From the NCBI GenBank assembly GCA_012840125.1, contig DULZ01000044.1, positions 17,975-81,974 of the forward strand: a DNA stretch of 64,000 nucleotides, read 5' to 3'. The position numbers were made by a program, and so were the translations under genes. Below are positions 16,759 to 54,225 of the stretch, piece by piece. Every line of letters starts with the position of its first letter. The stretch's first letter is position 1. This DNA comes from Clostridia bacterium. Lineage in GTDB: Bacteria > Bacillota > DULZ01. The notes under the pieces are model-generated. The model was given only the letters and a program-made list of their open reading frames with translations, did not search any database and was not told where the DNA came from.

Positions 16759-17535
16759 TTATAACCCTTTCACGGCCATCTTGTTCGCCTGATCATGACA
16801 GTTGAGACAGCTGTTGCCGTAGTTCTCCTTGTAGTGCTCGCCCTGCAGGTGAGCTTTGTGCATTGCCAAGCTCAGGGCTAAAGGACTGCCTTCAGCGTGG
16901 CACTGGACACAGGCCGATGCATTGTCGATGGGCAACTGCGGGTGACCCTCGATCTTAGCAATGGTTGCCGCGAGGCTGTAATCCTTGTCGTCGGAGACTT
17001 TCCTGTGACAATCGGTGCATCCGCCCGGTGCTTTGTCCACGGCGGCCACTTCGATAGTCACAAAGTTCGTCCCTTCCGGTGCCAGCTCACCTACCGGTAC
17101 GGTGCCATCTTCCGCCAACTTATGGCAGTGCACACAGGCAACGCTGATGGCTCCGCCGTAATGAGCGGAATGCAGTACCTTTCTCAGGCTCAGATCGCCG
17201 TCCCCATGGCAGGGCTGGCAATCAGACACGGCCTGCACCTGCATTTGCGGGTGATTCTCAATTTTTGCGATGGTATCAGCTACGGTACCATGGCAGTCGG
17301 CACAACCGGCTTTCTCTGCCGAAGATACGAAAACCATGTCCCCGCCTGCACTCGCTTCTTGTTGTTGGGGTTCCTCCGTTGCCGGTTCTTCAGCAGCCGG
17401 CTCTTCCGCGGGCTGTTCTGCCGCCGGTTGCTCCGGTTGTTGGGTGTCAGTCGATTGACCACCGCCACCGCAGCCAACTACCAGGAATAGGGCAAAAATA
17501 GCCATGGTGATAGCCACTAACAGCTTCTTGTTCAA
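16759..17535 (-). CDS. Hexaheme cytochrome c lipoprotein
   Basis: Lipobox LVVG-C; P/E/Q/A-rich linker; six CxxCH (CADCH, CQPCH, CVHCH, CTDCH, CVQCH, CLNCH); TTG start after AAGGAGGTG. Confidence 0.9.
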   Translation of the reverse strand: MNKKLLVAITMAIFALFLVVGCGGGGQSTDTQQPEQPAAEQPAEEPAAEEPATEEPQQQEASAGGDMVFVSSAEKAGCADCHGTVADTIAKIENHPQMQVQAVSDCQPCHGDGDLSLRKVLHSAHYGGAISVACVHCHKLAEDGTVPVGELAPEGTNFVTIEVAAVDKAPGGCTDCHRKVSDDKDYSLAATIAKIEGHPQLPIDNASACVQCHAEGSPLALSLAMHKAHLQGEHYKENYGNSCLNCHDQANKMAVKGL

Positions 17536-17560
17536 GAGCTTCACCTCCTTCCCCCTCCTC

Positions 17561-17614
17561 GTGTGATTAACTTCACACACCTGAATCCTACTCTTTCCAG
17601 GTGCAAATTGTCAA
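17561..17614 (-). promoter_or_regulatory. Sigma-A promoter with an operator over the start site (Rex- or Crp/Fnr-type)
   Basis: TTGACA-N18-TAGGAT, then palindrome GTGTGATTAACTTCACAC (17561-17578). Confidence 0.65.
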
Positions 17615-40086: not shown

Positions 40087-41517
40087 TTGTGGACCGTTGA
40101 GATCGAGGTGGATACATTGTCTGACCAATTCCGGAAATACTGGCCCTATTTGGCTTGGGGCATCCCCGTCATCGGCGGGTATTTCGGCATCAAATACCTG
40201 GCCGAAAAGATGGTAAAAGACAACATCAAAAAAGCCACCCGGCTCATCTTAACGGAGAAATACGATGAAAACATGTGGGAATTGGTATCAGCCACCCGCC
40301 GCTTTACCCCGCAAACCATCGTGGAAAACAGCCTAAGGGCCCAGTCAGGCAAAGCCATCGACCGGCCTTTAGGAACTCCTAAAAAATTCCCGTCTTTCGA
40401 TGACTTGATGTTTAACATGGCCCAACTCCATACCATGCCGACGGCGGATCTGAAGCTCATCGATTTAACCACCGTCATCGGCAAAAAAGCGGCCCGGCCC
40501 TTGCGCCTATCCATGCCGGTCATGGTCTCCGCCATGGCTTACGGCATCGCTTTAAGTGAACCTTTTAAAATCGCCCTCGCCCTGGGGGCGACTATGGCCG
40601 GTACTGCCACCAACACGGGAGAAGGACCCTTCTTACCCAGCGAAAGAAAAGCTGCTCAACAGTTAATTTTACAATATAACCGGGGGAATTGGAACAAAGA
40701 CCCGGAAATTGTACGGCAGGCAGACATGCTGGAACTGCAGTTCGGCCAGGGGGCCACCGGGGGCACCGCCCACACCATCTCCGGCAAGGACATGACCCCT
40801 GCCTTGCGCCGCCGTTTCGGCATCAGCAGCCATCAATCCGTGACGGCCCACGCCCGCATACCCGGTATCAATTCAGCCCAGGATTTAATTCGCACCATCA
40901 AGGAACTGCGAAAAACTACCGACGGCATCCCCATCGGGGTGAAACTGGGGGCCGGCAAGTATTTGGAAAAAGACCTGGACGTGGCCCTGGCCGCCGGTGT
41001 CGATGTCATCTGCCTGGACGGCGCCGAAGCGGCCACCAAAGGTTCCCACCCGATCCTGCAGGATGATTTCGGGGTACCAACTCTTTTTGCCCTCATCAGG
41101 GCCCAGAACTACCTGGAAAGAACGGGAAGGAGAAAAGACGTGGATCTGGTAATCTCCGGGGGCATCCGCACTCCCGGCCACGTCTTAAAAGCCGTTGCCC
41201 TGGGCGCCGATGCCGTGTACATGGGCAGTGCGGCGATCTTCGCCACCAGCGACGTCCAAACCGTGAAGACCATTCCCTCGGAACCCCCTACCCAGATCGC
41301 CTGGGAGACCGGTAAATATGCCCGGAAATTCAACATCGAAGAAGGAGCCCAATCATTATATCGATTCCTCACGGCTACCGCCGACGAAATACGGGCCGGC
41401 CTGCAGGCTTTGGGAAAGAAATCCCTCAAAGAGGTAGGCAAAGAAGATCTCATGGCCCTATCCAAGGAAATCGCCGAAGCCGCCGGCGTACCCACCGTCT
41501 ACCAGCCCTGCCGGTAA
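40087..41517 (+). CDS. FMN-binding glutamate synthase family protein
   Basis: N-terminal TM helix; AMAYG, NTGEG, FGQGA, GVKLG, DGAEAAT, ISGG, LGADAVY. Confidence 0.82.
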   Translation: MWTVEIEVDTLSDQFRKYWPYLAWGIPVIGGYFGIKYLAEKMVKDNIKKATRLILTEKYDENMWELVSATRRFTPQTIVENSLRAQSGKAIDRPLGTPKKFPSFDDLMFNMAQLHTMPTADLKLIDLTTVIGKKAARPLRLSMPVMVSAMAYGIALSEPFKIALALGATMAGTATNTGEGPFLPSERKAAQQLILQYNRGNWNKDPEIVRQADMLELQFGQGATGGTAHTISGKDMTPALRRRFGISSHQSVTAHARIPGINSAQDLIRTIKELRKTTDGIPIGVKLGAGKYLEKDLDVALAAGVDVICLDGAEAATKGSHPILQDDFGVPTLFALIRAQNYLERTGRRKDVDLVISGGIRTPGHVLKAVALGADAVYMGSAAIFATSDVQTVKTIPSEPPTQIAWETGKYARKFNIEEGAQSLYRFLTATADEIRAGLQALGKKSLKEVGKEDLMALSKEIAEAAGVPTVYQPCR

Positions 41518-41562
41518 AAAAGCACAGGGGACATGCAGCCGTCCCCTGTGCTTTACCCGGAA

Positions 41563-41811
41563 TTAGATGCGGGTAATACCGTCAACATTGATGTTCTTAG
41601 AGCCTTTTTCCACGAAAGATTTACAGCAGGTTTCCATGCAGCTGTTGACGGGGGTAGGTGTTACGTTTTTCGCCTGCGTGGCGTCAAATCGCTCAGGCAG
41701 GGAATCTCCCAACCGGTCGGTGGTCACCAGGATCTCGTTGGCTGAACACTTATTTCCCTGGCTCCAATAGTGACAGTTGCTGACGCTGCAGTGAACGTGT
41801 TGTTGCTGCAT
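41563..41811 (-). CDS. DUF1540-like Cys-rich protein
   Basis: HCSVSNCHYW...CSANEILV and ETCCKSF motifs. Confidence 0.78.
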   Translation of the reverse strand: MQQQHVHCSVSNCHYWSQGNKCSANEILVTTDRLGDSLPERFDATQAKNVTPTPVNSCMETCCKSFVEKGSKNINVDGITRI

Positions 41812-41874
41812 TGATTCAACACCTCCTGTACAATAGTTTGAGCCAGGCGCCGGGATTTAGCCCAGCAATTTTTG

Positions 41875-41907
41875 CAAAAAAACAAGGCAGGGGATCGATC
41901 CCTGCCT
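41875..41907 (-). terminator. Terminator after the hybB-like gene
   Basis: AGGCAGGG/CCCTGCCT stem with a T-run on the minus strand. Confidence 0.6.
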
Positions 41908-41920
41908 AGCTGGAAACATT

Positions 41921-43081
41921 TTACGCCGCTTGAGCGTTTTTCCCGGCTTCCTCCGCCCCGGCATGCTCATGCCCGGCAAAAAGGTTGAAATTTTCGGCAA
42001 TAAAAGTGTATACCAGTACCCCCGCGGCAACCAGCATCGCCGTCACGCTGATCTCCATCCAGCTGGGAAAATAGGACCCGCCGGCTGCGCCCGCCATCCC
42101 AATTAGAGCCACGTTGAACCGGTTCAGCATCACGCCGCCCACCACAAGTGCACCAATTGTCGCAAGCCCCTGGCTGTTACGCCGTACAGCGGGAATAGAA
42201 GCCATGATGCCGGGAGCAATCACACCGACGACCATTTCCAGCAGCCACATGTTGCTTTCCAAGGAAGTGGTGAAGACGGTGCCAAGCTGGCCCCGCACGT
42301 ACAAGTCCGTCACTTTCACTAGGAAGTAAATGCCTAAGATGACCGGTAACCCTTTGGCAAAATCAGCCAAGATCGGAGTCTCCGACTTGAGCCCAAAAGC
42401 ACGGGTGGCTAAGCTTGTTTCCACGATAACCATCCCGATCCCCACCGCCAGGGCGCTCAGGAAAAACATGATGGGCAGGATCGGGGTCCACCACAGGGGA
42501 TGGAGTTTAGACGGTACCAGGAGAAACAGGGAGCCCAAGGAAGACTGGTGCAAAGTAGAAAGAATGATACCGGCACCAACCAGCGGAATAGTAATGCGGT
42601 GCAAAACCCTGATCGCCTTTTGCCGGCGGAATCTTTCGAACACCACCGGGCTGAACTCCAGCGCCAGCACCGTTAAATACAGCATGACACACCAGGCAAC
42701 CTCAAACATCACGGACCGGGGCTGCCACATAACGATGGGATGCCAGATGTTGTAGTATTTACCCAAGTCAAAGACCAGTCCCATCGCCACCAGCACATAA
42801 CCGATGAAGCCCGTTAAAATGGCCGGTCTTAAAAGGGGAGCAAATTTCTTCTTATTAAAGATGTAAACCGCTGCCGCCGTAGTAAAGGCGCCGGCAGCCA
42901 GGGCCACTCCACAAATCACGTCGAAAGCAATCCACAATCCCCAGGGATACTGGTCCGTGAGATTGGTTGCCGCCCCTAATCCTTTAAAAAAGCGCACGTA
43001 ACTGGATACTAAACCGAGGAGGACTATGGCGATCAATACTCCCCTGGTAGGTGTCATTTTGAAAGTCCACTTCCGCTTCAT
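41921..43081 (-). CDS. hybB: NrfD/HybB-family quinone-interacting membrane subunit
   Basis: TNLTDQYPWGLWIAFD, DLGKYYNIWHP, SVMFEVAWCV, LSTLHQSSLG, LNRFNV. Confidence 0.85.
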   Translation of the reverse strand: MKRKWTFKMTPTRGVLIAIVLLGLVSSYVRFFKGLGAATNLTDQYPWGLWIAFDVICGVALAAGAFTTAAAVYIFNKKKFAPLLRPAILTGFIGYVLVAMGLVFDLGKYYNIWHPIVMWQPRSVMFEVAWCVMLYLTVLALEFSPVVFERFRRQKAIRVLHRITIPLVGAGIILSTLHQSSLGSLFLLVPSKLHPLWWTPILPIMFFLSALAVGIGMVIVETSLATRAFGLKSETPILADFAKGLPVILGIYFLVKVTDLYVRGQLGTVFTTSLESNMWLLEMVVGVIAPGIMASIPAVRRNSQGLATIGALVVGGVMLNRFNVALIGMAGAAGGSYFPSWMEISVTAMLVAAGVLVYTFIAENFNLFAGHEHAGAEEAGKNAQAA

Positions 43082-43938
43082 TGCTTATCACCCCGATCCT
43101 TAGTCAACTGGTAAGCTGTTCCCAAGACCAGCGCACCCCCCACCACCACGGCGGGAATCTTGGATAGAGCCATCTGGGTGTATTCGGGCAGGGGCCGGGT
43201 TCCCACATTGGACGGGAAGCCCAACTGTTCAAAGGGTACATCTGACAGGAACATGAAAGATGTTCCTCCCACTTCTGCCAGGCCGTAAATATGAGGTACA
43301 TACTTATCAGGTTCGGCTTGCAGGCGAGCTTTTGCTTCCGCCACCAGCTCTTCCCTGGTGCCGAACAAAGTGGCTTTAGTGGGACAAGCGGAGGCACAAG
43401 CCGTTGGTTCCCCTGCTTTAACCTTATCCGCACAGAAAATGCATTTCCGGATCACGGGAAACGGGCTGTCCCATTGGTATTTCGGCACATTAAAAGGACA
43501 AGCCACCATGCAGTACCTGCACCCCATGCACTTGCCCCCGTCGTAAACCACCGGTCCTTCCGGTGTTTTAATCAAAGCCCCCACCAGGCAAGCGGAGACG
43601 CAAGCGGGATCATGGCAGTGGAAACATTGATGCCTGACAAAACGTTTTTCCTTGCTGCCCTTTATATCTACTTCATAAGACTTTACGGCCACCCAGGTCT
43701 CGGCGTCCAATACTTCATTTTGCGTACCGGACAGCCCGTTCTGCTGCTGGCATGCCATGTAGCACATACCGCAGCCGATACACTTGGTAATATCAATTAA
43801 CATGCCTTTGGCCTCCGGGCTTAGCGCAGGTGACGACCCGTGACCGGAGCCAATACCTGCTTGCGCTTTGCCTGCGGGGAACAAGGCTAAAGCGGCAGCG
43901 CCGAGACCGGCCATTTTCAGGAATTTTCTTCTATTCAT
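43078..43938 (-). CDS. hybA: Tat-exported 4x[4Fe-4S] protein, HybA/NrfC-like
   Basis: MNRRKFLK Tat signal; CIGCGMC, CFHCHDPAC, CMGCRYC, CIFC...ACASACP; C-terminal TM anchor. Confidence 0.88.
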   Translation of the reverse strand: MNRRKFLKMAGLGAAALALFPAGKAQAGIGSGHGSSPALSPEAKGMLIDITKCIGCGMCYMACQQQNGLSGTQNEVLDAETWVAVKSYEVDIKGSKEKRFVRHQCFHCHDPACVSACLVGALIKTPEGPVVYDGGKCMGCRYCMVACPFNVPKYQWDSPFPVIRKCIFCADKVKAGEPTACASACPTKATLFGTREELVAEAKARLQAEPDKYVPHIYGLAEVGGTSFMFLSDVPFEQLGFPSNVGTRPLPEYTQMALSKIPAVVVGGALVLGTAYQLTKDRGDKQ

Positions 43939-43985
43939 ACGGTATCAACCTCTACTTTCAAGCTCAGTTTTGCACCAGGCAGAAA

Positions 43986-44035
43986 TTGTGAATAATTTCT
44001 CTTTTATGGCTATATTTAGTGAAATATTTCTCTTT
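43986..44035. promoter_or_regulatory. Tandem Rex-like sites upstream of hybA
   Basis: TTGTGAATAATTTCTCTT and TAGTGAAATATTTCTCTT, 31 bp apart. Confidence 0.45.
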
Positions 44036-44065
44036 CTTCCTGAAAAATTTTTCGCGGGGCTTTTT

Positions 44066-44209
44066 TTACAGCAAACAACACACCATTAACCCCAACATCA
44101 AAGAGATGATTAGCCCGCCGCAGCTCACCAGTAACCAAGCCAGCAGCCCTTTCTTCTCACACCGGCATTCCAACGCGGCCAGCCCCGCCATGATTAAGGC
44201 AATATCCAT
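44066..44209 (-). CDS. Small hydrophobic Cys-rich protein C, 47 aa (not in ORF track)
   Basis: AAAGGGGGG RBS; extended -10 TG-c-TAAACT (44243-44251); MDIALIMAGLAALECRCEKKGLLAWLLVSCGGLIISLMLGLMVCCLL. Confidence 0.5.
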   Translation of the reverse strand: MDIALIMAGLAALECRCEKKGLLAWLLVSCGGLIISLMLGLMVCCLL

Positions 44210-44472
44210 AATTTTAACCCCCCTTTGTATTCTCTTACCTAGAGTTTAGCAAGAAATGATTGCAATGCAGGGGGATTATCCTGTCTTCTCACTGGCGGTT
44301 TTCTTGTCTTTTTCTTTCAAAAAATAATAGACAATGACATTTAATATACTACAGCAATAGTTCTTAGGAATTTTGTTGCATATCTCATGAATTTAATTAT
44401 CTTTTAGCAATCTAACCGGTTATATTGCCCAGGATTTTTATTAGTTTTTCGCAATATTATGGGCAAGAAAAT

Positions 44473-44668
44473 CAGACTGTAGACAAAAGGGTGTTCGGTG
44501 TTAATCCCAGGGCTGGGGAGCGAGGGAGCTCGAGAGAAAACGCCAACCTCTGAGCGCCGAAAGAATCGAATGGGAGGCGTCCGAGAGCCACCGAGGTCAT
44601 CCCCAAATAGGGCTCCTTGCAGCCGGCGATTAACACCGAACGCAAAGGAGCAGTTTGTCAACAAGCTG
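44473..44668. mobile_element. MITE-like element, 196 bp, with IS1182-like ends
   Basis: Terminal IR CAGACTGTAGACAAA / TTTGTCAACAAGCTG (12/15); internal IR GTGTTCGGTGTTAATC / GATTAACACCGAACGC (15/16); partial second copy at 30877; no transposase. Confidence 0.65.
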
Positions 44669-44694
44669 CAAGATAATACCATATTTATTGATGC

Positions 44695-45615
44695 TTAAGG
44701 CAGCATTCCGTCCATTTCCCCGCCTGCCTGGCCGGTCAAGGTGATCACCAGTTGTCCCGGCACACAGACGATGGATTGTCCCGGCCGGCTGATAAACCCG
44801 GTCCTGACACAGGCTTGATCAGGGCAGCCCGCAGCCTGGATGCGGATTTTACCTTCCCGCACCTCCACGGTATAGGTGTGGCCCCGGCCTTGTACCGGAT
44901 ACACCCCGTCCTCCTCCAGGGAAACCTTTAGAATCCTTTCCCCGCCCACTTTGACTTCCGCCATACCAGCGGCAGCGCCTTTCGCGCCTGGCCCAGTGAA
45001 CGGAACAGCAACGCTTAAGACCAGGCAACATGCCAAGAGGCTCACAGCCTTCCAGTCGGGGCGGCAAAAGGAAACGGATCTTCCCTCGAAAAGCTTGATC
45101 AGGGGACGACTCAGGCCTGCTACCAGGGCACCGCAGGGCACGGCTGCCAGGGTGAGCATCGGTAAATACCAGGCCAGGGCCCCATGACTCAAAAGAAAAC
45201 GTGCCGCCAGCAGCTGCCCCCAGTTATGGGCGACGGCACCGGCCATACTGGTCGTCACCAGGTCCCCCTTGTCTTGGCGGAACGCCTGCCAGGCATACAT
45301 GACCAGGATACTGGCCAATCCCCCGGTCAAGCCCAGGTAGAATCCTATGGATAATAATTTGCCTGTCAGGATGCCCCCCAGGACCTGGCGGCACACCACC
45401 AAAACAAAAGCCGGCCTCCAACCCCAGAGCTCCAACGCCAAGAGCGCCGCGGTATTGGCCAGCCCCAGCTTCACACCGGGTAATCCTAACGGGGGCAACA
45501 TCCCCTCCACCGCCTGCAGTATAAGAGCCAGTGCCAGCAGCACCCCCAAACGGGCCACCGGCTGGGCCCCTCTTAACCCGAGGGCGGCAGGTTTGGTTAG
45601 GGACAATTCTTTCAT
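44695..45615 (-). CDS. Fusion of a Gx-transporter (HepS-I-like) domain and a NusG-domain-II-like protein
   Basis: N-terminal PGVKLGLAN, GAVAHNWGQ; extra TM helix; C-terminal GCPDQACVRTGFI...IVCVP. Confidence 0.8.
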   Translation of the reverse strand: MKELSLTKPAALGLRGAQPVARLGVLLALALILQAVEGMLPPLGLPGVKLGLANTAALLALELWGWRPAFVLVVCRQVLGGILTGKLLSIGFYLGLTGGLASILVMYAWQAFRQDKGDLVTTSMAGAVAHNWGQLLAARFLLSHGALAWYLPMLTLAAVPCGALVAGLSRPLIKLFEGRSVSFCRPDWKAVSLLACCLVLSVAVPFTGPGAKGAAAGMAEVKVGGERILKVSLEEDGVYPVQGRGHTYTVEVREGKIRIQAAGCPDQACVRTGFISRPGQSIVCVPGQLVITLTGQAGGEMDGMLP

Positions 45616-45625
45616 AGCAGAACAC

Positions 45626-46657
45626 CTACTCAGGAAAGGATATGGAATCTTTCACGCCGCTGCTCACTTGTACATTCAAGTCCCGGTCAATCATGACACA
45701 ATCCACGCCGGGCCAGTTCTCCACCAGGGCCATGCCTGCTTCCGGCCCCAGGATAAAGACGGCTGTGGCCAGCCCATCCGCCAGCACCCCGCTGGGCGCC
45801 AGGATCGTCACACTGGTTAACTCCCGGGCCGGATAACCGGTAAAGGGATGCAATAAATGAGAAAAACGCTGTCCTTCGTAAAAGCGATAACGCTGGTAAT
45901 CACCGGAAGTGGTGACCGCCCGGTCCTGTACCGTCACCACGGCTATTGCCCGGGACGGGTCCCGCGGGTGGCGGATGCCCAGTTTCCAGGGCCGGCCTTC
46001 CGGATGCCGGCCCAGGACGTAATAATCACCACCGAAATCGATCAAGGCGTTTTCGATCCCCCAGCTTTTCACAAGGGCAGCAATCAGGTCCACAGCATAG
46101 CCTTTGGCGATACCTCCCACATCCAACTTCATCCCGGGCTGGGCCAGCTGCACCAGCCCGCGGGCCGGATCGAGCTTAAGCTCCCGGTAATCCACTAACC
46201 GGCAGGCTTGGGCCACCTCCGCCTGCCCGGGGGGTTGCCAGTTCTCCTGCGCCTCCGGTTTTGAGGCAGGCCCGATCTGCCACAGCTCCGCCAAGGGACC
46301 GATGGTGGGATCAAAATAACCTCCCGTCCTGGCGGCCAAGTCCCGGGCTTGTATCAATAAATCCATGGTCTTATCGCTCACGGGAACCTGTTGACCGGCC
46401 TGGGCATTAATGCGGCTGATGTCGCTGTCAGGGGAAAAACGGTTGAACAACCGGTCCATCTCCGCCAGCTCATTGATCACGGCTTCTTTTTGCGCACCGG
46501 TCAAGCCGGGGGTGGTTAAGCGGAAATAGGTATCCATGCTGAAGGTCTCCAACTGTTCCAGTCGGGGAGGTGGCTCTTTAGTGCAGCCCGGCCAAACCAC
46601 GGCCCCAAGAAGCACCAAGCACCACAGGCTCGCCCGGGCCAGTTTTTTCCCTCCCAT
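45626..46657 (-). CDS. apbE: FAD:protein FMN transferase lipoprotein ApbE
   Basis: Lipobox WPGC; SMDT, FDPTIGPL, DVGGIAKGY, TSGDYQR, ADGLATA. Confidence 0.93.
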   Translation of the reverse strand: MGGKKLARASLWCLVLLGAVVWPGCTKEPPPRLEQLETFSMDTYFRLTTPGLTGAQKEAVINELAEMDRLFNRFSPDSDISRINAQAGQQVPVSDKTMDLLIQARDLAARTGGYFDPTIGPLAELWQIGPASKPEAQENWQPPGQAEVAQACRLVDYRELKLDPARGLVQLAQPGMKLDVGGIAKGYAVDLIAALVKSWGIENALIDFGGDYYVLGRHPEGRPWKLGIRHPRDPSRAIAVVTVQDRAVTTSGDYQRYRFYEGQRFSHLLHPFTGYPARELTSVTILAPSGVLADGLATAVFILGPEAGMALVENWPGVDCVMIDRDLNVQVSSGVKDSISFPE

Positions 46658-46687
46658 GTCCTTCCCCTTTCATCATGCGGTTAGGCA

Positions 46688-47518
46688 TTAAGCCAGCAGT
46701 TTTTGTTCCGGGGATACGGTTTTCGTCAGTTCGATACAACCGGACGGGCATTTAGCGGCACAAGCACCGCAAGCGATGCATTTCGTCACATCTACCTGTG
46801 CCAGGTTGTTCACCATGGACACGGCTTGCTGCTCGCAGGCCTTCACGCAGGCCCGGCATGCCAAACAACCGACCTGGCAGTACTCCCTGACCATCTTTCC
46901 TTTATCATGGGAATTGCAGCGAACTACTAAAGGCACATCATAGTCCATTACAGCCAAAACTCTACGAGGACAAGCTGCCGCACAAGCACCGCAGCCGGTG
47001 CACTTTTCTTTATCCACCACCGGCAGGTGATCTTCGCCCAGGGTGATGGCACCGAAAACGCACACGGTGGTGCAGGTCCCCAAGCCCAGGCAGCCTTCAT
47101 GGCACCCCTTGGGACTGGACCCGATCAGGGACGCGGCCCGGCAGTCCTTGATCCCCTCGTATTGAGCCAACCACCTGGCCAGCTTGTAATCACCCCGGCA
47201 GCGTACCTTCACCACTTGTTTTTTCCGGGTTCCGGAAGCTTCTACCCCCAGAATGGCACAGATTTCTTTTTTCGCCTCGGCATCAACCACCCGGCAAGCA
47301 TCCACCGAGGCCGCTCCCGCCGCCAGGGCTTCAGTATAACCGGAACAGCCGCTGCAGCCGCAGCTGCCGCAGTTGGCGCCCGGCAAGAAGGAAGCCAGCA
47401 GCTCCACTTTGGGATCGCTGTCCACCTTGAACTTACCTGCCGCCCAGGCCAACCCTGCCGCAAACACAACCCCCAGTCCACCCATTACACCGGCGGAAAC
47501 CAAGACTTCCTTTAGCAT
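46688..47518 (-). CDS. rnfB: Rnf subunit B (polyferredoxin)
   Basis: TM anchor, LPGANCGSCG, GCLGLGTC, CTGCGAC, GCLACRAC, CIACGAC. Confidence 0.92.
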   Translation of the reverse strand: MLKEVLVSAGVMGGLGVVFAAGLAWAAGKFKVDSDPKVELLASFLPGANCGSCGCSGCSGYTEALAAGAASVDACRVVDAEAKKEICAILGVEASGTRKKQVVKVRCRGDYKLARWLAQYEGIKDCRAASLIGSSPKGCHEGCLGLGTCTTVCVFGAITLGEDHLPVVDKEKCTGCGACAAACPRRVLAVMDYDVPLVVRCNSHDKGKMVREYCQVGCLACRACVKACEQQAVSMVNNLAQVDVTKCIACGACAAKCPSGCIELTKTVSPEQKLLA

Positions 47519-47551
47519 TGTTGTTCCCCCTTTCCTTTTTTACTATCAGGC

Positions 47552-48133
47552 TCACATAGGCACTAACCCGGAAAAGCCCAGAAAAGCCATCGACATGATA
47601 CCGGCGATGATTAGGGCCAAGCTGGTCCCTTTAAAGGCCGGCGGCACGTCCGCAAATTCCAGTTCTTCCCTGATACCCGCCATCATCACCAGGGCAAATG
47701 TGAAACCTGCACCCGCTCCAATGGCAAAGACCGTGGTTTCCAAGAAAGTGTACGTGCTTCCGGCCACAATTAACGCAATGCCGAGGATGGCACAGTTAGT
47801 GGTAATCAAGGCCAAATAAATACCCATGGCTTGATACAACTGCGGGAAAAACTTTTTCAGCATCATCTCCAGCAGCTGCACTAAACAAGCAATCATCAAA
47901 ATGAATACCACGATTTTCATAAACTCCAGGCCCAAGGGATCCAGGATGTATTCGTAGACCAGCCAAGAAGCCATGGCGGACACCACAAGTACAAATGACG
48001 CGGCCAACCCCATGCCCCAGGCGGCATCCAGTTTCCGGGTCATGCCCAGGAAAGGACAGATGCCCAGGAAACGCGCCAGCACAAAGTTGTTGACCAGGGC
48101 GGATCCTACCAGCAAGAGCAGCAACTCTTTCAT
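47552..48133 (-). CDS. rnfA: Rnf subunit A
   Basis: NNFVLARFLGICPF, LITTNCAILG, AGIREE; both Fe-S Cys present. Confidence 0.95.
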   Translation of the reverse strand: MKELLLLLVGSALVNNFVLARFLGICPFLGMTRKLDAAWGMGLAASFVLVVSAMASWLVYEYILDPLGLEFMKIVVFILMIACLVQLLEMMLKKFFPQLYQAMGIYLALITTNCAILGIALIVAGSTYTFLETTVFAIGAGAGFTFALVMMAGIREELEFADVPPAFKGTSLALIIAGIMSMAFLGFSGLVPM

Positions 48134-48789
48134 GATTTCGCGGCCTCCTTCCCGACCAGCCTAATTTGATGCCTAGCGGCCTGCTGGAATTGACGCGCCC
48201 GGCGCATTTCCACAAAGTTGAGGACAAAGACGATGAGGCCCATGGTCAGGAAAGCCCCGGGAGGCATCTGCATGATCTTCCACGGTATAAAGCTTTCCCC
48301 CATGATTTGAAAACCAAACAGAGTGCCGGCACCCAGCAGTTCCCTGACGCAGCCGATGAAAGTCAAAGCCCAGGTAAAGCCTAAACCAGTGCCGACGGCA
48401 TCGGTAACAGCCCGGGAAATGGGCATTTTGGAGGCAAAGGCTTCGGCTCGCCCCAGGATAATGCAGTTCACGACGATGAGAGGCACAAATATGCCTAGAA
48501 TTTTATAAATCTCCGGCAGCATGGCTTTTAATAACAGATCCACAATGGTCACAAAAGTAGCGATAATCACGATATAGGCGGGGATGCGAATCTGGCTGGG
48601 AATTAGCTTTTTCAAAGCCGAGATGATGGTGCTGGAGCAGATTAAAACCGCCGTCGTAGCCAACCCCATGATCAAACCGCTTTCCGCAGAAGTGGTCACC
48701 GCCAGCGGGGGACACATCCCGATCAACATCCTAAAGGTCGGGTTTTCCCGGAACAGGCCCCGCAGGATATCATCAAAATGATGTTGCAT
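48130..48789 (-). CDS. rnfE: Rnf subunit E
   Basis: ENP...GMCPPLAVT, IRIP, PLIVVNCIILGRAE, PPGAF. Confidence 0.95.
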   Translation of the reverse strand: MQHHFDDILRGLFRENPTFRMLIGMCPPLAVTTSAESGLIMGLATTAVLICSSTIISALKKLIPSQIRIPAYIVIIATFVTIVDLLLKAMLPEIYKILGIFVPLIVVNCIILGRAEAFASKMPISRAVTDAVGTGLGFTWALTFIGCVRELLGAGTLFGFQIMGESFIPWKIMQMPPGAFLTMGLIVFVLNFVEMRRARQFQQAARHQIRLVGKEAAKS

Positions 48790-48801
48790 CTTTATCCCTC
48801 C

Positions 48802-49359
48802 TTACTCCTCTCCTACATAGGCCAGCACCTGCTGCACCGTAGTGCCCACCGTAGCCGTCACCGCTACCGAGGAAACGGTAGCCCCGGTAATGCCGTCCAC
48901 GTCTTGGCCTACGGCAAAGGGATCCCCCACCGGTTTCCCTGGAAACTGGCTCAAAAAGGCTTCATCGGTTTCAATGCGGGAACCCAAGCCCGGCGTCTCC
49001 CCGTGGCTCAACACTTTGATGCCGGCCAGGGAGTTAGTGCTGAGATCGATGCCGACGGCTATTTTCATCTCCCCGCCGTAGCCCGTTCCCACGGCCTCAT
49101 ACGCAATACCGATCCTGCGGTTGTTTTCATCCAACCCTTCATAGACTTGGGTGACCCCGGCCGGCAGCTCCCCCTGCGCTTCCACCGCTTGGAAACGCTG
49201 GGCCGCAGGCAGCACTTCCTTAAAGCCTTTACTGATCATTTCCTCCATCTGCCTGGCTTCCACGATGGGCATGGTAAAACTGTAAAACGCTCCTAATCCG
49301 CCACCGGAAATCGCTGCAATGAGACCGAGAGTCAAAATCAACTTGATGGCATTTTTCAT
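48802..49359 (-). CDS. rnfG: Rnf subunit G (covalent FMN)
   Basis: TM anchor, GYGG, HGETPGLG, intact DGITGAT flavinylation motif. Confidence 0.93.
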   Translation of the reverse strand: MKNAIKLILTLGLIAAISGGGLGAFYSFTMPIVEARQMEEMISKGFKEVLPAAQRFQAVEAQGELPAGVTQVYEGLDENNRRIGIAYEAVGTGYGGEMKIAVGIDLSTNSLAGIKVLSHGETPGLGSRIETDEAFLSQFPGKPVGDPFAVGQDVDGITGATVSSVAVTATVGTTVQQVLAYVGEE

Positions 49360-50306
49360 ATGGCGGCTCCCCTCCTTTTAGCCCGCAAGAAACGATTGAG
49401 CATGGGCGTTAAACCGTTCATGAGCAAGACAGCGTAAAAAAGGGCATCGGGATTCTGCCCGTAGTATCGCATCACAACCGTAAACAAACCCACACCTATC
49501 CCAAACACCAACCTGCCCCAAGGGGTAATCGGGTTGGTAACCGGGTCCCCGGCCAGGTAAAAAGCTCCCAGGATTAATCCCCCTACCAGCAAATGCCACA
49601 GGGGATCTTCGCCCACCAGGAGCATGAAAATGCCCACCGCGGCCAGCATACCGAGGGGGATTCTCCAATCCACGTAACCCTTGGCCACCAGTACCAGGCC
49701 TCCCAAAACCAGCGCCACCACGGCGAATTCCGCCATGAAACTACCCGTACTTCCCAGAAGCAGGGATTGATAACCGGGTAACGCTTCCCCGGCTTTCCAC
49801 AAATCCATCGGGCTTGGCACTCCCGTACCGCCGGAGAAAGGCAGGGTCCAATTGCTAACCTGTTCCGGGAAGGAAACAGCCAGGAAAACACGGCCTACCA
49901 CCGCCGGATTAAATGGGTTGCACCCGGTTCCACCGAAGACCTGCTTGCCAATGGTAATGGCAAAGACAGCACCCAGCATCGCTGCCCAAAAAGGCACCGT
50001 CGGGGGCAGGGTCAAAGCCAGAATCAACCCTGTTAAAACAGCCGTACCGTCCATGAGGCTTAAAGGCTTGTTTCTCAGTTTCAGGCAAGCTGCCTCCGTC
50101 AAGACCGCCGTACCCACACAGAGGGACAGCACCAGCAGGGCCGGCCAGCCGAACAGGTACAGCACCCAGAGCACCGCCGGCATTAATGAACCAATAGTCC
50201 AGTACACAATCTTGTCTACGGAAATGGCCGCATGAATGTGAGGCGGCGGGGAAGTAATCAGCCTCAAATGATAGATTCTTTTTTCCTCGGCCTTTAGCAC
50301 AGACAT
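49356..50306 (-). CDS. rnfD: Rnf subunit D, divergent flavinylation loop
   Basis: TSPPPH, KQVFGG...NPFNPA, GDPVTNP, LLMN; WTLPFSGGTGVPSP instead of D-x-x-(T/S)-x-A-T-P; start ATG 50306. Confidence 0.88.
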   Translation of the reverse strand: MSVLKAEEKRIYHLRLITSPPPHIHAAISVDKIVYWTIGSLMPAVLWVLYLFGWPALLVLSLCVGTAVLTEAACLKLRNKPLSLMDGTAVLTGLILALTLPPTVPFWAAMLGAVFAITIGKQVFGGTGCNPFNPAVVGRVFLAVSFPEQVSNWTLPFSGGTGVPSPMDLWKAGEALPGYQSLLLGSTGSFMAEFAVVALVLGGLVLVAKGYVDWRIPLGMLAAVGIFMLLVGEDPLWHLLVGGLILGAFYLAGDPVTNPITPWGRLVFGIGVGLFTVVMRYYGQNPDALFYAVLLMNGLTPMLNRFLRAKRRGAAI

Positions 50307-50332
50307 TTTTGTCACCTCCTTGACCAACGCTC

Positions 50333-51598
50333 CTAGCTGACCAGCATCTTTTTCGCCAGTCTCAGTAACTGCAGTAAGGGTTTCCCGGCAGGGCAAACAT
50401 AAGAGCACCGGCCGCACTCATTACACAACAAAACCCCTTCTACCTTGGCCGCTTCCCAGTTTTGTCGCGCTGCATAAGCGGCAATTCGCTGGGGCAATAG
50501 TTTAACCTGGCAGACTTGGTAGCACCGGCCGCAGTGAATGCAAGCCCGGTCCAGGTAATGAAAAACCTCATCTTCACAGAAAGTCAGGATGGAAAAAACT
50601 CCTTTGCCGACAGGCAAGTCAAGCCTGGGTACGGAAGTACCGTTGAGAGCGCAGCCTACCACCACCTTGGCCAGCTCCGTTTCCTTGACTTCGGCGGAAA
50701 TGAGCACTTCTCCCAGGTCAGTTCCCAACGGCACTTGATAATAGCCCGGTCTCCTGACCCCGTTTCCTTCCACCAAAATCAACTGTTCCATATACGGTTC
50801 TCCCAGGAACAGGGCCCGGTGAATTGCCCTGGCTTGCTGCAGAGTGACCGGCAAAATCTCTTCCGCCAGCGGCGAGGCGCCCCGCTCCAGGGGACGACCG
50901 GCGATTTCTTCCACCGCCCATTTCACCGGCATATCGGGTGAATTCCCGGCACCGGGCAAAGTCCTGGCTTTAGGGAATTCGCTCAACAATGTCTTAAGGG
51001 TGGGACTGGGGTGGCTGTGCCAGACTAACCCAGCCTCCGGGTACAGTGTGAATAAGACCCGCAAGCCGGAGATTACCTCATGAAACCAAGGAGGCAACTC
51101 TTCCCCACCGGACCCGTTAAGCGCCCCCACCCACCCGTGGAGAAGGAGGGTATGGATGCCGGCTCCGGGAGACGGCAGCCCGTACACAAAAGTGGTCCCG
51201 TCCACAAAAGTAATCACAATCCCCGCTGCATTTAATCGTTCATAAATCTCCGCCGCCGTCATGCCATTTATACCTGTTATTTTGGACAACTCTACACTTT
51301 CCCCCAAACCGTCATTCTCCACCACTACCGTGGTGGCCGGCACACCTTCACAGTTATCCATCACCGCAATTTGTTTCACTCTACCGCTCACGGGACTGTG
51401 AACCGCTGCCCCTCCGGTCACCGCCACCGGCTGTCCCCGTAAAACTCTCGTGCCGGGCTCCACCAGCACCTCACAGGGCAAATCTTGACGCTGGCACGGT
51501 ATCCTGACCACCGGCGGAAGGGTCACAGGCAGTATCTCCAGGTCATGGGGAACAGATTGCTTCTTTTCGTCATGTTTTCCGAAAGTCGATGATATCAT
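50333..51598 (-). CDS. rnfC: Rnf subunit C homolog lacking FMN/NADH motifs
   Basis: VHSPVSG, AAGIV, SLBB region and two Fe-S motifs (CIHCGRC, CNECGRCSYVCP) kept; GGAGFP, NGAECEP, YPQG, GGPMMG replaced. Confidence 0.85.
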   Translation of the reverse strand: MISSTFGKHDEKKQSVPHDLEILPVTLPPVVRIPCQRQDLPCEVLVEPGTRVLRGQPVAVTGGAAVHSPVSGRVKQIAVMDNCEGVPATTVVVENDGLGESVELSKITGINGMTAAEIYERLNAAGIVITFVDGTTFVYGLPSPGAGIHTLLLHGWVGALNGSGGEELPPWFHEVISGLRVLFTLYPEAGLVWHSHPSPTLKTLLSEFPKARTLPGAGNSPDMPVKWAVEEIAGRPLERGASPLAEEILPVTLQQARAIHRALFLGEPYMEQLILVEGNGVRRPGYYQVPLGTDLGEVLISAEVKETELAKVVVGCALNGTSVPRLDLPVGKGVFSILTFCEDEVFHYLDRACIHCGRCYQVCQVKLLPQRIAAYAARQNWEAAKVEGVLLCNECGRCSYVCPAGKPLLQLLRLAKKMLVS

Positions 51599-51610
51599 AT
51601 AGTTGCCCCC

Positions 51611-51712
51611 TTGTGATAGTGTTAATTATCTCTAATTATTCTAACATCTTGAGGATTCGCAATTCTAAGCAAATACTGGCGGACTGATAACTTTTTTCTA
51701 ACAATTGTCTAA
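51611..51712 (-). promoter_or_regulatory. rnf operon promoter region
   Basis: Extended -10 TG-t-TAGAAT (51638-51646); Rex-like TTGTGATAGTGTTAATTA (51611-51628); TTAGA direct repeat at 11-bp spacing (51697-51712). Confidence 0.5.
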
Positions 51713-51743
51713 TGCTGGTTGCCATCCCATTACTTAGACAAAG

Positions 51744-51808
51744 AAAGACCCGCAAGCAGGCAACGGCCCCCGAACACTTCCGGCCGGTCATGCTTGCGGG
51801 CTCTTTTT
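51744..51808. terminator. Long-loop hairpin after the two-component operon
   Basis: CCCGCAAGCA / TGCTTGCGGG stem flanked by A- and T-runs. Confidence 0.5.
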
Positions 51809-51818
51809 CCGGCATTTT

Positions 51819-52541
51819 TTAATCCGCATTTCTCACTTGTACCTCTCCGCCGCCGAACTTGTAACCTACCCCCCAGACGGTTTTAATGTAGCGCGGATTG
51901 GATGGGTCTTTCTCGATTTTTTCCCGCAGGCGACTGACCATTACTGTGACGTTATCTGCATCACCTATATAATCGCTGTCCCAGATCTGGTCCAACAAGT
52001 TCTCTCTCGTAAAAACATAGTCGGGATGAGATGCGAGCAACCACAACAGCTTAAACTCTTTCGGCGTCAGCTGTACCTCTTTACCGTCGAGCATTACCAA
52101 ATGCCCGCGCAAATCGATAAAGAGACCATTGCATTTAATGACATTGGGTTCTGCCGCTTTACTGCTCCTTTGCCCGGCGGTCCTTCGCAACATGGCTTGC
52201 ACCCGGAGAGCCAGCTCCGAAGGGCTGAATGGCTTGGTGAGGTAATCATCGCCACCCATCCTGAAGCCCAGCAGCCGGTCTAACTCGTCCCCCCGGGCGG
52301 ACAGGATGATAATGGGCACATCCGATTCTTCTCTCATCACCCGGCAGACCTCAAAGCCATCAACTTTCGGCAGCATCAAATCCAGGATCACCAGGTCGGG
52401 TTTTTCGCGCCGGAACACTTCAATGGCCTCTTCCCCGTCGCTGGCGGTAATGATTTCGTGCCCCTCCCTGGACAGCCGGTGCACAATCACCTTTAGAATA
52501 TCAGGTTCATCGTCTACCGCCAAGATTCTGCTACCTGCCAT
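51819..52541 (-). CDS. OmpR-family response regulator
   Basis: VDDEP, LDLMLP, GGDDYLTKPF, LTPKEF, IKTVWGVGY winged HTH. Confidence 0.95.
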   Translation of the reverse strand: MAGSRILAVDDEPDILKVIVHRLSREGHEIITASDGEEAIEVFRREKPDLVILDLMLPKVDGFEVCRVMREESDVPIIILSARGDELDRLLGFRMGGDDYLTKPFSPSELALRVQAMLRRTAGQRSSKAAEPNVIKCNGLFIDLRGHLVMLDGKEVQLTPKEFKLLWLLASHPDYVFTRENLLDQIWDSDYIGDADNVTVMVSRLREKIEKDPSNPRYIKTVWGVGYKFGGGEVQVRNAD

Positions 52542-54225
52542 CTTCTGTCACCCCCGCTTCTTTTAAGATTTTTGGTATCGTAAAGTAAAAATTGGATCCC
52601 ATACCTAAATCGCTTTCCACCCAGATCCTCCCCCCATGCATTTCCACAAAGCTCTTCGCAATAGCCAGGCCCAATCCTGTGCCCGGGTGCTTGCGGGTAG
52701 ACGAACCGTCCACTTGACGGAACGCCTCAAAAATATATTCCTGTTGTTCGGGAGCAATGCCTATCCCCGTGTCGCTGACGCAGACCAGCACTTCCTGCTC
52801 ATGCTCCTTATAGCAAGCTTTGATGCGCACCAATCCTCCCGCATCAGTGAATTTCACGGCATTGCTGATCAAGTTGACCAGGACCTGATCTACTTTCTCC
52901 TTGTCTGCGTACACCTCTGTACCGGGAAGTTCTTCCTCCACCAGTATCCTGACTTCCTTTTTTAAGGCGATGGGCTCCATGCGATGGGCCACATCCCGGA
53001 TCACATCTGCCATGGCAAACCAGGAAGGCAGTAAACCCATCTTTTTCGCTTCGATTTTGGCCATATCCAGAATAGCATTGATGGAAGTCAACAATCGCTG
53101 GCTGCCTCGCAGGACGTCGTTGAGGTATTCTTTTTGCAGGTCTGTCAACTCTCCTCCCACCCCCTCTAACAGGAGCTCCACAAAGGCCGTAATGGAAGTC
53201 AGCGGTGTGCGGAGCTCATGGCTCACGCTGGCCAGGAACTCTGACTTTAACTTATTCGCTTCCGCCAAACGGCGGTTGGCTTTCCGCAACTCTTCCTGCT
53301 GCTGCTTCAGAATCTCGTTGGCATGCCGCAGTTCGGCGGTTCGCTCGGCCACCTGGTGTTCCAGGTCATCGTAATATCGTTTCAGGCGGGTGGCCATACT
53401 GTCCAATTGCTTCGCCAGCTGGCGAATTTCCACCGGAATGGTAATGTTAGGCAAGGGATAATCCAAGTGCCCTTCCCCGATGGCCGTGGCGGCCCAAGCC
53501 AGTTTCGTCAACGGGCGTTCCACCAGCTGCCGCACAAACCAGTAAATAGCCAGGGCACTTAACACGATGAGGGAGCCGGTGATGGCCACTTGGGCGATGG
53601 TTTCAGTACGCAGGGTTTCCTCCAGCACCACCATGGGTATCCCTAGACTCACGGCCCCGGCCAGTTCCCCCAGTTCATACCGGGGTACTTCCTGGGAAAA
53701 GGCAATGCGGCTGTCATTGCTGTGACAAGTCAGGCAGGGCTCTTCAATATGGATCGGCAATAAATACCGGAAATACCTCCTGCCGTCGATGGTATCAATG
53801 CCCCAGGCCTCTTGGGCATTCTGACCTGCCCGCAGTTGGCCTAACAGCTCCAGCTCAAATGCATCGGGTGCATGGAGGTCATCACTGCTAGGCAGCCAGA
53901 TTTCTTTAAAAAACCAGGCCTCATCCCCGCGAAACAGCTCCCGCACCCCTTTTTCCGCCGCCGCCGGGTCCAAGTGTTCAAACTGGGCCAGGTTCTTGGG
54001 ATCGGTACCGGGATAGTAATACTGGTAACTCTCTGCCACGAAAGCCCGCGTAGCCAAAAACTGGGACGCAGCCACCCTGGCCTTGTCCATCAGTTCGGCT
54101 TCCGCCCTGGCTTTTTGCCGCTCGAAAGTCCAAACAAAACTTACCACGGACACCCAGATGGTAATGATGGCCAGACACAAAACCAACCGGACTCCCAGCT
54201 TGTCAAGCAATCTGGCGTTTTTCAT
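52531..54225 (-). CDS. Sensor histidine kinase with an extracytoplasmic heme-c (DUF3365-like) domain and HAMP
   Basis: TM - YFRYLLPIHIEEPCLTCH - TM, HAMP, SHELRTPL, NLISNAVKF, GTGLGL. Confidence 0.9.
   Translation of the reverse strand: MKNARLLDKLGVRLVLCLAIITIWVSVVSFVWTFERQKARAEAELMDKARVAASQFLATRAFVAESYQYYYPGTDPKNLAQFEHLDPAAAEKGVRELFRGDEAWFFKEIWLPSSDDLHAPDAFELELLGQLRAGQNAQEAWGIDTIDGRRYFRYLLPIHIEEPCLTCHSNDSRIAFSQEVPRYELGELAGAVSLGIPMVVLEETLRTETIAQVAITGSLIVLSALAIYWFVRQLVERPLTKLAWAATAIGEGHLDYPLPNITIPVEIRQLAKQLDSMATRLKRYYDDLEHQVAERTAELRHANEILKQQQEELRKANRRLAEANKLKSEFLASVSHELRTPLTSITAFVELLLEGVGGELTDLQKEYLNDVLRGSQRLLTSINAILDMAKIEAKKMGLLPSWFAMADVIRDVAHRMEPIALKKEVRILVEEELPGTEVYADKEKVDQVLVNLISNAVKFTDAGGLVRIKACYKEHEQEVLVCVSDTGIGIAPEQQEYIFEAFRQVDGSSTRKHPGTGLGLAIAKSFVEMHGGRIWVESDLGMGSNFYFTIPKILKEAGVTEDGR

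Follow-up and report, generated by a model that had tools for sequence, protein, structure and literature searches.

In Escherichia coli hydrogenase-2 (HybOABC), a HybA with four [4Fe-4S] clusters and a C-terminal helix, exported by the twin-arginine translocation (Tat) system, is combined with HybB, a heme-free membrane subunit of the NrfD type. A comparable pair of an exported iron-sulfur protein and an NrfD-type subunit, HmcB and HmcC, belongs to the Hmc complex of Desulfovibrio, and the Qrc complex (QrcABCD) of the Desulfobacterota is described (PMC6303296) as a periplasm-facing iron-sulfur subunit and an NrfD-type subunit that reduce menaquinone electrogenically with electrons from an outside donor. 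For Methanosarcina acetivorans Rnf, transfer of electrons to a membrane carrier through the exported protein MmcA, encoded together with the rnf genes, is set out in bioRxiv 10.1101/2022.07.20.500911. Two-subunit Nqr/Rnf-like systems have lost the flavinylation threonine of NqrB/RnfD and carry electrons one way, from the cytosol to an extracytosolic flavin mononucleotide (FMN) domain flavinylated by ApbE (Meheust et al. 2021, PMC8238504; bioRxiv 10.1101/2024.03.13.584918). Here we analyse a stretch of 64,000 nucleotides (nt) from a Clostridia bacterium (contig DULZ01000044.1; the window), in which a HybA/HybB-type gene pair (hybAB) follows a variant rnf cluster on the same strand. Our data give about an even chance to the reading that HybAB is the quinone-side partner of a re-wired Rnf complex in this lineage, and we regard this as its most likely role.

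The two genes, hybA (43078-43938, 286 amino acids) and hybB (41921-43081, 386 amino acids), lie on the minus strand with a 4-nt overlap. The N-terminus of HybA, MNRRKFLKMAGLGAAALALFPAGKAQA, is a twin-arginine signal (NRRKFLK) that aligns with the signal of E. coli HybA; the 16 cysteines of the protein are arranged in four ferredoxin-type motifs (CIGCGMCYMAC, CFHCHDPACVSAC, CMGCRYCMVACP and CIFC...CASACP), and the 3' part of the gene encodes a hydrophobic transmembrane helix at the C-terminus. Together with a Pfam Fer4_11 match (E 3e-20) and 35% identity to E. coli HybA across the full length (E 2e-54), these features place the protein among the four-cluster, Tat-exported ferredoxins of the NrfC/HybA type. 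HybB matches the Pfam NrfD family (PF03916) with 71.3 bits against a gathering cut-off of 25.8, over profile positions 3-306 of 313. It shares 29% identity with E. coli HybB and retains every residue of that protein implicated in quinone binding and proton paths, as listed by Calisto and Pereira (PMC8076601): D58, R89, Y99, D109, S129, E133, Y141 and E148, and likewise E155, H184, S186, S187, K198, E291 and R329, are invariant in our HybB alignment (A6). The contig also carries the gene of a classical MenA, from which menaquinone should be available; the futalosine pathway was looked for and is absent. The initial annotation had described the pair as a Tat-exported protein with four [4Fe-4S] clusters and an NrfD-type membrane subunit, and the open reading frames (ORFs), the signal, the cysteine motifs and the Pfam matches all bear this out.

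In its working, the pair would resemble HybA/HybB of hydrogenase-2 and HmcB/HmcC, but its scores stay under their equivalog cut-offs and their catalytic partners are missing. The top NCBIfam models for HybB are HmcC (NF045714, 338 bits) and then HybB (NF008133, 306.5 bits), and those for HybA are HmcB (NF045715, 272 bits) and then HybA (NF008134, 224.3 bits); all four scores fall below the equivalog cut-offs of 550, 450, 420 and 263 bits, respectively. Unlike in hydrogenase-2, no HybO or HybC adjoins the pair and no hydrogenase small or large subunit is encoded in the cluster, and the stand-alone pairs to which it is related form a clade of their own. The best-scoring system, Hmc, likewise joins an exported iron-sulfur protein to an NrfD-type subunit, and the genome studied here is also of the sulfate-reducer type, but the 16-heme cytochrome HmcA, HmcDEF and any other CxxCH-rich ORF are missing from the cluster. 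Qrc (PMC6303296) resembles the pair in having an outer-face iron-sulfur subunit and an NrfD-type subunit that serve menaquinone; it differs in its multiheme QrcA and molybdopterin-like QrcB, and QrcC and QrcD are matched weakly (77 and 127 bits). No sequence in the PDB matches HybB at E 0.001 or better, and those matching HybA are generic subunits of the FdnH/NrfC type only. As the initial annotation had noted, no catalytic subunit accompanies the pair: from the rnf cluster through to the strong terminator behind hybB (41907-41885), there is no hydrogenase, molybdoenzyme or cytochrome gene, and no further exported redox protein is encoded within the cluster.

The rnf genes upstream, also on the minus strand, encode all six subunits in the order rnfC-D-G-E-A-B. 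On the path that would lead electrons outward, every element of a canonical Rnf complex is present: RnfB (46688-47518), the ferredoxin-side polyferredoxin, has its iron-sulfur and Fer4 domain matches; RnfA (47552-48133) and RnfE (48130-48789), both Pfam Rnf-Nqr proteins, each keep two cysteines (in GICPFLG and TTNCAILG, and in GMCPPLA and VVNCIILG, respectively), which we take to form the intramembrane [2Fe-2S] site; and RnfG (48802-49359) has one FMN_bind domain with an intact flavinylation site, D-G-I-T-G-A-T. On the return path, RnfC (50333-51598) has no match to Complex1_51K (PF01512) and lacks the two motifs of the FMN/NADH domain (NADH, reduced nicotinamide adenine dinucleotide), GxGGAxFP and NGAECEP, which are absent throughout the variant clade and present in 11 of 11 canonical control RnfC proteins; its [4Fe-4S] cysteine motifs are kept. 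The absence of these motifs, already claimed in the initial annotation, thus holds, and it is accompanied by a degenerate flavinylation site in RnfD (49356-50306): where eight canonical RnfD proteins of the same phylum read D-x-T-x-A-T-P-L, in agreement with the general motif D-x-x-[ST]-x-A-T-P-L, the window has GTGVPSPM and the clade ..SSPL or ..QSPL. By its motifs, the return path is degenerate at two points, RnfC and RnfD, and the outbound path through RnfB, the RnfA/E cysteines and RnfG is retained. The RnfC of PH28_bin88, considered as a canonical counter-example, was set aside, as it has a Complex1_51K match yet both motifs are missing. Reduction of quinone directly at RnfD, in the manner of Nqr, which depends on the FMN bound covalently to NqrB, was considered too and is disfavoured because the equivalent site of this RnfD is degenerate. 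In relatives, RnfG is extended, with two FMN_bind domains in L112 (4485-5549), L114 (5616-6701) and L170 (10947-12005) and three in genome G038 (L116, 7931-9589), each with a flavinylation motif and joined in tandem by Pro/Ala-rich linkers. Judging from this domain structure, the multi-domain RnfG of the basal members would be an extended flavin wire on the outside, and the window's genus has reverted to the single-domain form.

The distribution of hybA follows this variant form of Rnf. In a phylum-wide search, RnfD was detected in 127 of 401 genomes, and the variant (RnfD at least 52% identical) in two GTDB families only, the window's own (f1) and f34; G160 (L114/L004/L120) belongs to f34, and its 7% contamination is a caveat on the spread across families. 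Seven variant lineages could be assessed (the window; L001-3; L113; L112/G005; L114/L004, i.e., G160; G038, with L116 and L132; and L170), and in all seven hybA comes after apbE. Two of them, G038 and L170, are especially telling, in that hybA closes the rnfCDGEAB-apbE operon there; in G038 it begins 25 nt past apbE. What lies downstream differs between these two loci, and both are without a two-component system or an adjacent hybB. G038 has a single HybB ortholog, by itself on a different contig, and a single HybA ortholog, the copy linked to rnf. As controls, we used 11 canonical rnf clusters of the same phylum (RnfD 43-48% identical), which have intact RnfC motifs, a single-domain RnfG and, in the eight that were aligned, an intact RnfD motif; HybA, HybB or the kinase lies beside none of the 11. 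Among 38 metagenome loci, HybA is likewise absent wherever the RnfC motifs are intact, and HybA is confined to one locus, L132, which also has the only full-length motif-less RnfC. Close relatives occur in the Logan sequencing runs SRR29281534, SRR23005575 and SRR11356281. The variant cluster retains apbE and an FmnA-like gene. The proposed co-occurrence of hybAB with motif-less RnfC is thus upheld in one direction, from variant Rnf to HybA; the reverse fails, since HybAB also occurs without Rnf. As a separate observation, in four metagenome loci (L147, L151, L152 and L162), multiheme cytochrome genes and apbE lie directly upstream of a canonical rnfC, which looks like the cytochrome-associated rnf arrangement of the Desulfobacterota type.

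In the mechanism that we propose, reduced ferredoxin would feed RnfB, and the iron-sulfur site of RnfA/E would let electrons cross the membrane and reach, at its outer side, the FMN bound covalently to RnfG. As the normal return from RnfD-FMN through RnfC-FMN to NAD+ is degenerate, electrons would leave to HybA, whose four [4Fe-4S] clusters, exported by Tat and anchored by the C-terminal helix of the protein, would act as a wire outside the membrane, and from there to HybB, predicted to bind menaquinone within the membrane. Under an ion-motive force, the chain could also reverse and carry electrons from menaquinol to ferredoxin. The gene content, the motifs lost and kept, the conserved HybB residues and the one-way co-occurrence are observed; that RnfG-FMN touches HybA and passes electrons to it, and likewise the direction of their flow, the ion coupling and the role of the 47-amino-acid protein, is predicted. 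At somewhat less than even confidence, we offer a fuller picture, in which this "half-Rnf", reduced to its outbound path, would form with HybAB a reversible ferredoxin:menaquinone oxidoreductase that could couple to ions at two sites and is limited to a few Bacillota of the sulfate-reducer type, and in which the wider stand-alone HybAB clade would be a general plug-in quinone adaptor that is wired elsewhere to heme-c sensor kinases.

Compared with described Rnf-like and flavin-based systems, the proposed chain shares with the M. acetivorans Rnf-MmcA system an outlet from Rnf to a membrane carrier through an additional exported redox protein, but there the protein is a multiheme c-type cytochrome, the carrier methanophenazine and the organism an archaeon, whereas here they would be an iron-sulfur protein with an NrfD-type subunit, menaquinone and a bacterium of the Bacillota type. 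The two-subunit Nqr/Rnf-like systems show the same loss of the RnfD/NqrB flavin site and the outward one-way flow that is proposed here; their donor is NAD(P)H, by way of an NqrF-like domain fused to them, and they have no RnfA, RnfE, RnfB or RnfC, in contrast to the six Rnf subunits and the ferredoxin-type RnfB donor side found here. Flavin-based extracellular electron transfer in Listeria (PplA, FmnB and FmnA) also involves an ApbE-type transferase and an FmnA-like protein, and the multi-FMN_bind exported proteins of the relatives have counterparts there. In the Listeria system, electrons come from demethylmenaquinone and run outward; in the proposed chain they would end on the quinone and pass an iron-sulfur/NrfD pair on the way.

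Several observations weigh against a partnership of HybAB with Rnf. The arrangement in the window is looser than the initial annotation had it, which placed hybAB directly downstream of the rnf operon: the pair does follow the rnf cluster on the same strand, but apbE (45626-46657, minus strand; Pfam ApbE 288 bits, a flavin transferase lipoprotein with lipobox WPGC), an FmnA-like gene and an AT-rich gap of 756 base pairs (bp) intervene, in this order, between rnfB and hybA. The gap holds a dispersed repeat, a conserved leader and a 47-amino-acid ORF, and with hybAB having a leader and a small ORF of its own, strict membership of the rnf operon is not supported for it in the window. The small ORF (44066-44209, minus strand) encodes a protein with two transmembrane segments, has a strong ribosome-binding site (AAAGGGGGG) and is kept upstream of hybA in L001, L004, L112, L113 and L114 and also in the Rnf-less genome G001; as it precedes hybA in every close relative, the Rnf-less one included, the transcription unit is most likely small ORF-hybA-hybB, in which the 47-amino-acid protein may have a role. 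The leader or promoter region of this unit (44210-44469, minus strand) stands out by its high conservation in the alignment with L001 (A2). A further point concerns RnfC, whose eight [4Fe-4S] cysteines are all invariant across the variant clade; this suggests that the cytoplasmic arm may still carry electrons to some partner of RnfC on the cytoplasmic side. All variant clusters (RnfD at least 52% identical), moreover, form one clade, so that their association with HybA may come from a single ancestral arrangement and not from repeated selection.

HybAB is also not exclusive to Rnf. In G001, from a sister genus within the window's family (91% complete, 20 contigs), HybA and HybB are 65% and 73% identical to those of the window, the small ORF is likewise in place and the downstream synteny is unchanged, but there is no detectable RnfD and no orthologous kinase; dsrN-M-K lie upstream of hybAB instead. 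The module therefore clearly has a role that is independent of Rnf. In the HybB tree, G001 falls in an unresolved trichotomy with two Rnf-bearing groups, so loss and gain are indistinguishable. The G001 arrangement, in which dsrN-dsrM-dsrK-like genes and a YeiH-type gene that is split precede hybAB, is seen in L103 (G001:C8, 10434-16196) and L119 (3803-5621), and at a distance of about 23 kb the same G001 contig has two hexaheme cytochrome genes in tandem.

Beyond the window's relatives, a scan of one genome per species returned more than 597 HybAB relatives, and we surveyed 83 loci, 80 of them from the scan (46-57% identical; mainly Acidobacteriota, but also Ignavibacteria, Bacteroidota, KSB1 and others) and three from further relatives. 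None of these 83 stand-alone loci contains rnf genes, a further count against the link to Rnf; in all, over 500 stand-alone HybAB relatives from other phyla are without Rnf, and hundreds of such pairs adjoin heme-c sensor kinases. The hybA gene is immediately upstream of hybB in 81 of the 83, and the pair is followed immediately by a histidine kinase in 71 and by a sigma-54 response regulator in 65; in 58, membrane-anchored GcvH-like genes precede the pair and the regulator gene is followed by one for a Peptidase_M54-like protein. The full cassette thus runs from one or two membrane-anchored GcvH-like genes through hybA, hybB, the histidine kinase and the sigma-54 response regulator to the Peptidase_M54-like gene (L007-L083, e.g., L007 5428-12891 and L075 of Geothrix fuzhouensis), and it extends to Verrucomicrobiota and Planctomycetota. 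The periplasmic domain of the kinase carries a CxxCH near residue 114 and a Cx4CH near residue 157 in 60 of 62 loci. No description of this pairing of hybAB with a heme-c sensor kinase, or of the cassette, was found in the literature searched. In about ten relatives, HybB is fused at its C-terminus to a tri-heme (in one case hexa-heme) domain of the cytochrome c7 type (loci L014, L019, L038, L058, L070, L071, L073 and L086; proteins P0042, P0052 and P0066), and the pairs of L025, L081 and L082 adjoin a small multiheme gene, which points to c-type hemes as the partners of stand-alone HybAB elsewhere. On this survey, stand-alone HybAB is a common portable module whose usual neighbour is a heme-c sensor system and not Rnf.

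These data allow HybAB to be read as an autonomous module that exchanges electrons between menaquinol and a periplasmic carrier, for heme-c or other exported partners, and that lies near rnf through inherited gene order and shared two-component control, receiving no electrons from Rnf. The stand-alone habit of the wider clade beside two-component systems, the c7-type fusions and adjacent multiheme genes, the retention of HybAB in G001 and the separate leader and small ORF in the window all agree with it, as does a Clostridia contig (L005; HybB 56% identical) in which a response regulator gene, hybA and hybB overlap as one operon beside a Tll0287-type kinase, with no Rnf. We nevertheless consider this unlikely, if not lightly dismissed, as it leaves unexplained why hybA is tied to rnf-apbE in two lineages, G038 and L170, that have neither a two-component system nor hybB at this place, and why, among Rnf clusters, only those degenerate on the NAD(H) side have HybA. 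The prevalence of the kinase pairing, with its heme motifs and the hybA-hybB-kinase-regulator order kept across Acidobacteriota, Ignavibacteria, Bacteroidota, KSB1 and others, invites another reading, in which HybAB would be the input device of a heme-c sensor kinase, poising a periplasmic heme against the menaquinone pool, with Rnf merely a regulated target; such a "regulatory quinol dehydrogenase" would be analogous to the regulatory hydrogenase that senses H2 in partnership with HoxJ. A heme-c sensor (Tll0287-like) is present in the kinase of the window too, but this kinase and its regulator are of other types than those of the widespread cassette (OmpR versus sigma-54); G001, G038 and L170 keep HybA, or HybA and HybB, with no such kinase nearby, and a module of four [4Fe-4S] clusters and ten transmembrane helices would be costly for mere sensing. 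This makes the sensory reading improbable.

The genome offers other possible partners, in that HybAB could be a spare membrane anchor and electron wire that serves a catalytic subunit from some other locus, for instance an exported [FeFe] hydrogenase, a formate dehydrogenase or a molybdoenzyme. It has eight NrfD-family genes and 11 full-length matches to molybdopterin enzymes, most with their own iron-sulfur and NrfD neighbours and some without an NrfD of their own, and on contig C62 a paralogous HybAB pair (44% and 38% identical) comes after the gene of an [FeFe] hydrogenase with a Tat signal. In this set (C62:16081-19611, outside the window), the hydrogenase is a lipoprotein with a Tat signal in which the large and small subunit domains are fused; a signal-less HybA and a HybB come next, and the whole makes up an outward-facing membrane-bound [FeFe] hydrogenase:quinone module. 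Desulfotruncus alcoholivorax (L085) and Desulforudis sp. (L087) have these genes in the same layout. In the HybB tree, however, the pairs linked to hydrogenase are set apart as a clade supported at 100/100, and the window's HybB clusters with the stand-alone pairs; the Tat signal there is on the catalytic subunit, whereas here HybA has its own. The sole [NiFe] hydrogenase of the genome, on contig C105, was ruled out as the missing partner because it has its own cytochrome b, and no catalytic gene recurs beside the roughly 80 stand-alone relatives. We judge a distant catalytic partner to have a small chance, slightly better than that of the sensory reading. A hexaheme lipoprotein encoded at 16759-17580 of the window had been put forward in the initial annotation as a carrier between RnfG and HybAB, and its export, its lipid anchor and its long acidic tether, in the same genome, would suit it to shuttle electrons between RnfG and HybA. 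Its gene, though, stands 25 kb from hybAB among unrelated genes, and its distribution does not co-vary with Rnf: homologs are present in G001, G002 and G004, all without Rnf, whereas in G003 and G005, both with Rnf-HybAB, there are only weak fragments with in-frame stops, and G038 has none. On position and phyletic pattern we reject this shuttle, and a role for the lipoprotein in the chain is very hard to credit.

Having weighed these alternatives, we return to HybAB as the partner of the re-wired Rnf and to the genes that surround it in the window. Upstream of rnfC lie a response regulator of the OmpR type (51819-52541, Pfam) and a sensor kinase with a Tll0287-like periplasmic domain and one CxxCH, CLTCH (52531-54225, Pfam and motif), both on the minus strand. 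They are conserved upstream of rnfC in L001, L112, L113 and L114; in L004, the regulator is complete and the kinase extends past the end of the locus, and neither gene adjoins the rnf clusters of G038 or L170. This heme-c sensor kinase and its regulator probably control expression. A shared OmpR-type operator was not found: TTAGA-N6-TTAGA occurs at the rnfC promoter and not upstream of hybA, its count in the window is no higher than expected by chance, and no regulator motif is common to the upstream regions of rnfC and hybA. The leader of the hybAB unit holds a near-perfect 22-bp palindrome, GCAATATAACCGGTTAGATTGC (44407-44428), unique in the genome and a candidate operator, for a dimeric regulator rather than one of the OmpR type. 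An Rfam scan of 41000-52500 gave nothing relevant. The FmnA-like membrane protein (44695-45615, minus strand; Pfam Hpre_diP_synt_I and NusG_II, 120 and 83 bits) is a putative flavin exporter, by analogy with the Listeria FmnA/FmnB system. Between its gene and the hybAB leader lies a dispersed repeat of about 200 nt (44470-44690, no strand assigned), resembling a miniature inverted-repeat transposable element with 19-nt terminal inverted repeats; at least ten full or partial copies occur on other contigs, several at contig ends, and it is missing from the orthologous spacer of L001, an 85%-identical relative.

Downstream of hybB, an intrinsic terminator (41885-41907, minus strand) whose 8-bp stem contains six GC pairs and precedes a T-run closes the unit right after the gene. 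It is followed by a gene for a small Cys-rich DUF1540 protein of 82 amino acids (41563-41811, minus strand; Pfam E 2.5e-16); the ORF is a DUF1540 gene in L001-L003 as well, has the same size without a Pfam match in L004, and is matched by BLAST in G005. Elsewhere in the genome, on contig C29 (about 50100-64100, outside the window), there appears to be a DsrMK-type pair with DsrN, together with a DsrK-J(triheme)-O-P-like set, an assignment that draws on BLAST and heme-motif patterns.

To our knowledge, Gram-positive sulfate reducers and syntrophs lack Qrc, Tmc and the type-I cytochrome c3, and how electrons from ferredoxin reach the menaquinone pool, or come back from it, in these organisms is an open question. 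No link between Rnf and a HybA/NrfD-type module is described in the literature searched, which included a 2025 review of Rnf and Nqr (PMC12174285) and the NrfD review (PMC8076601). Independently of Rnf, stand-alone HybAB proves to be very common and, in other phyla, to stand almost always with heme-c sensor kinases. If the proposed partnership is correct, an Rnf complex with an outward iron-sulfur/NrfD quinone module in place of the NAD(H) outlet would be a new solution to the linking of ferredoxin and menaquinone, and a bacterial counterpart of the archaeal Rnf-MmcA system, encoded in a defined cassette of 11-13 genes.

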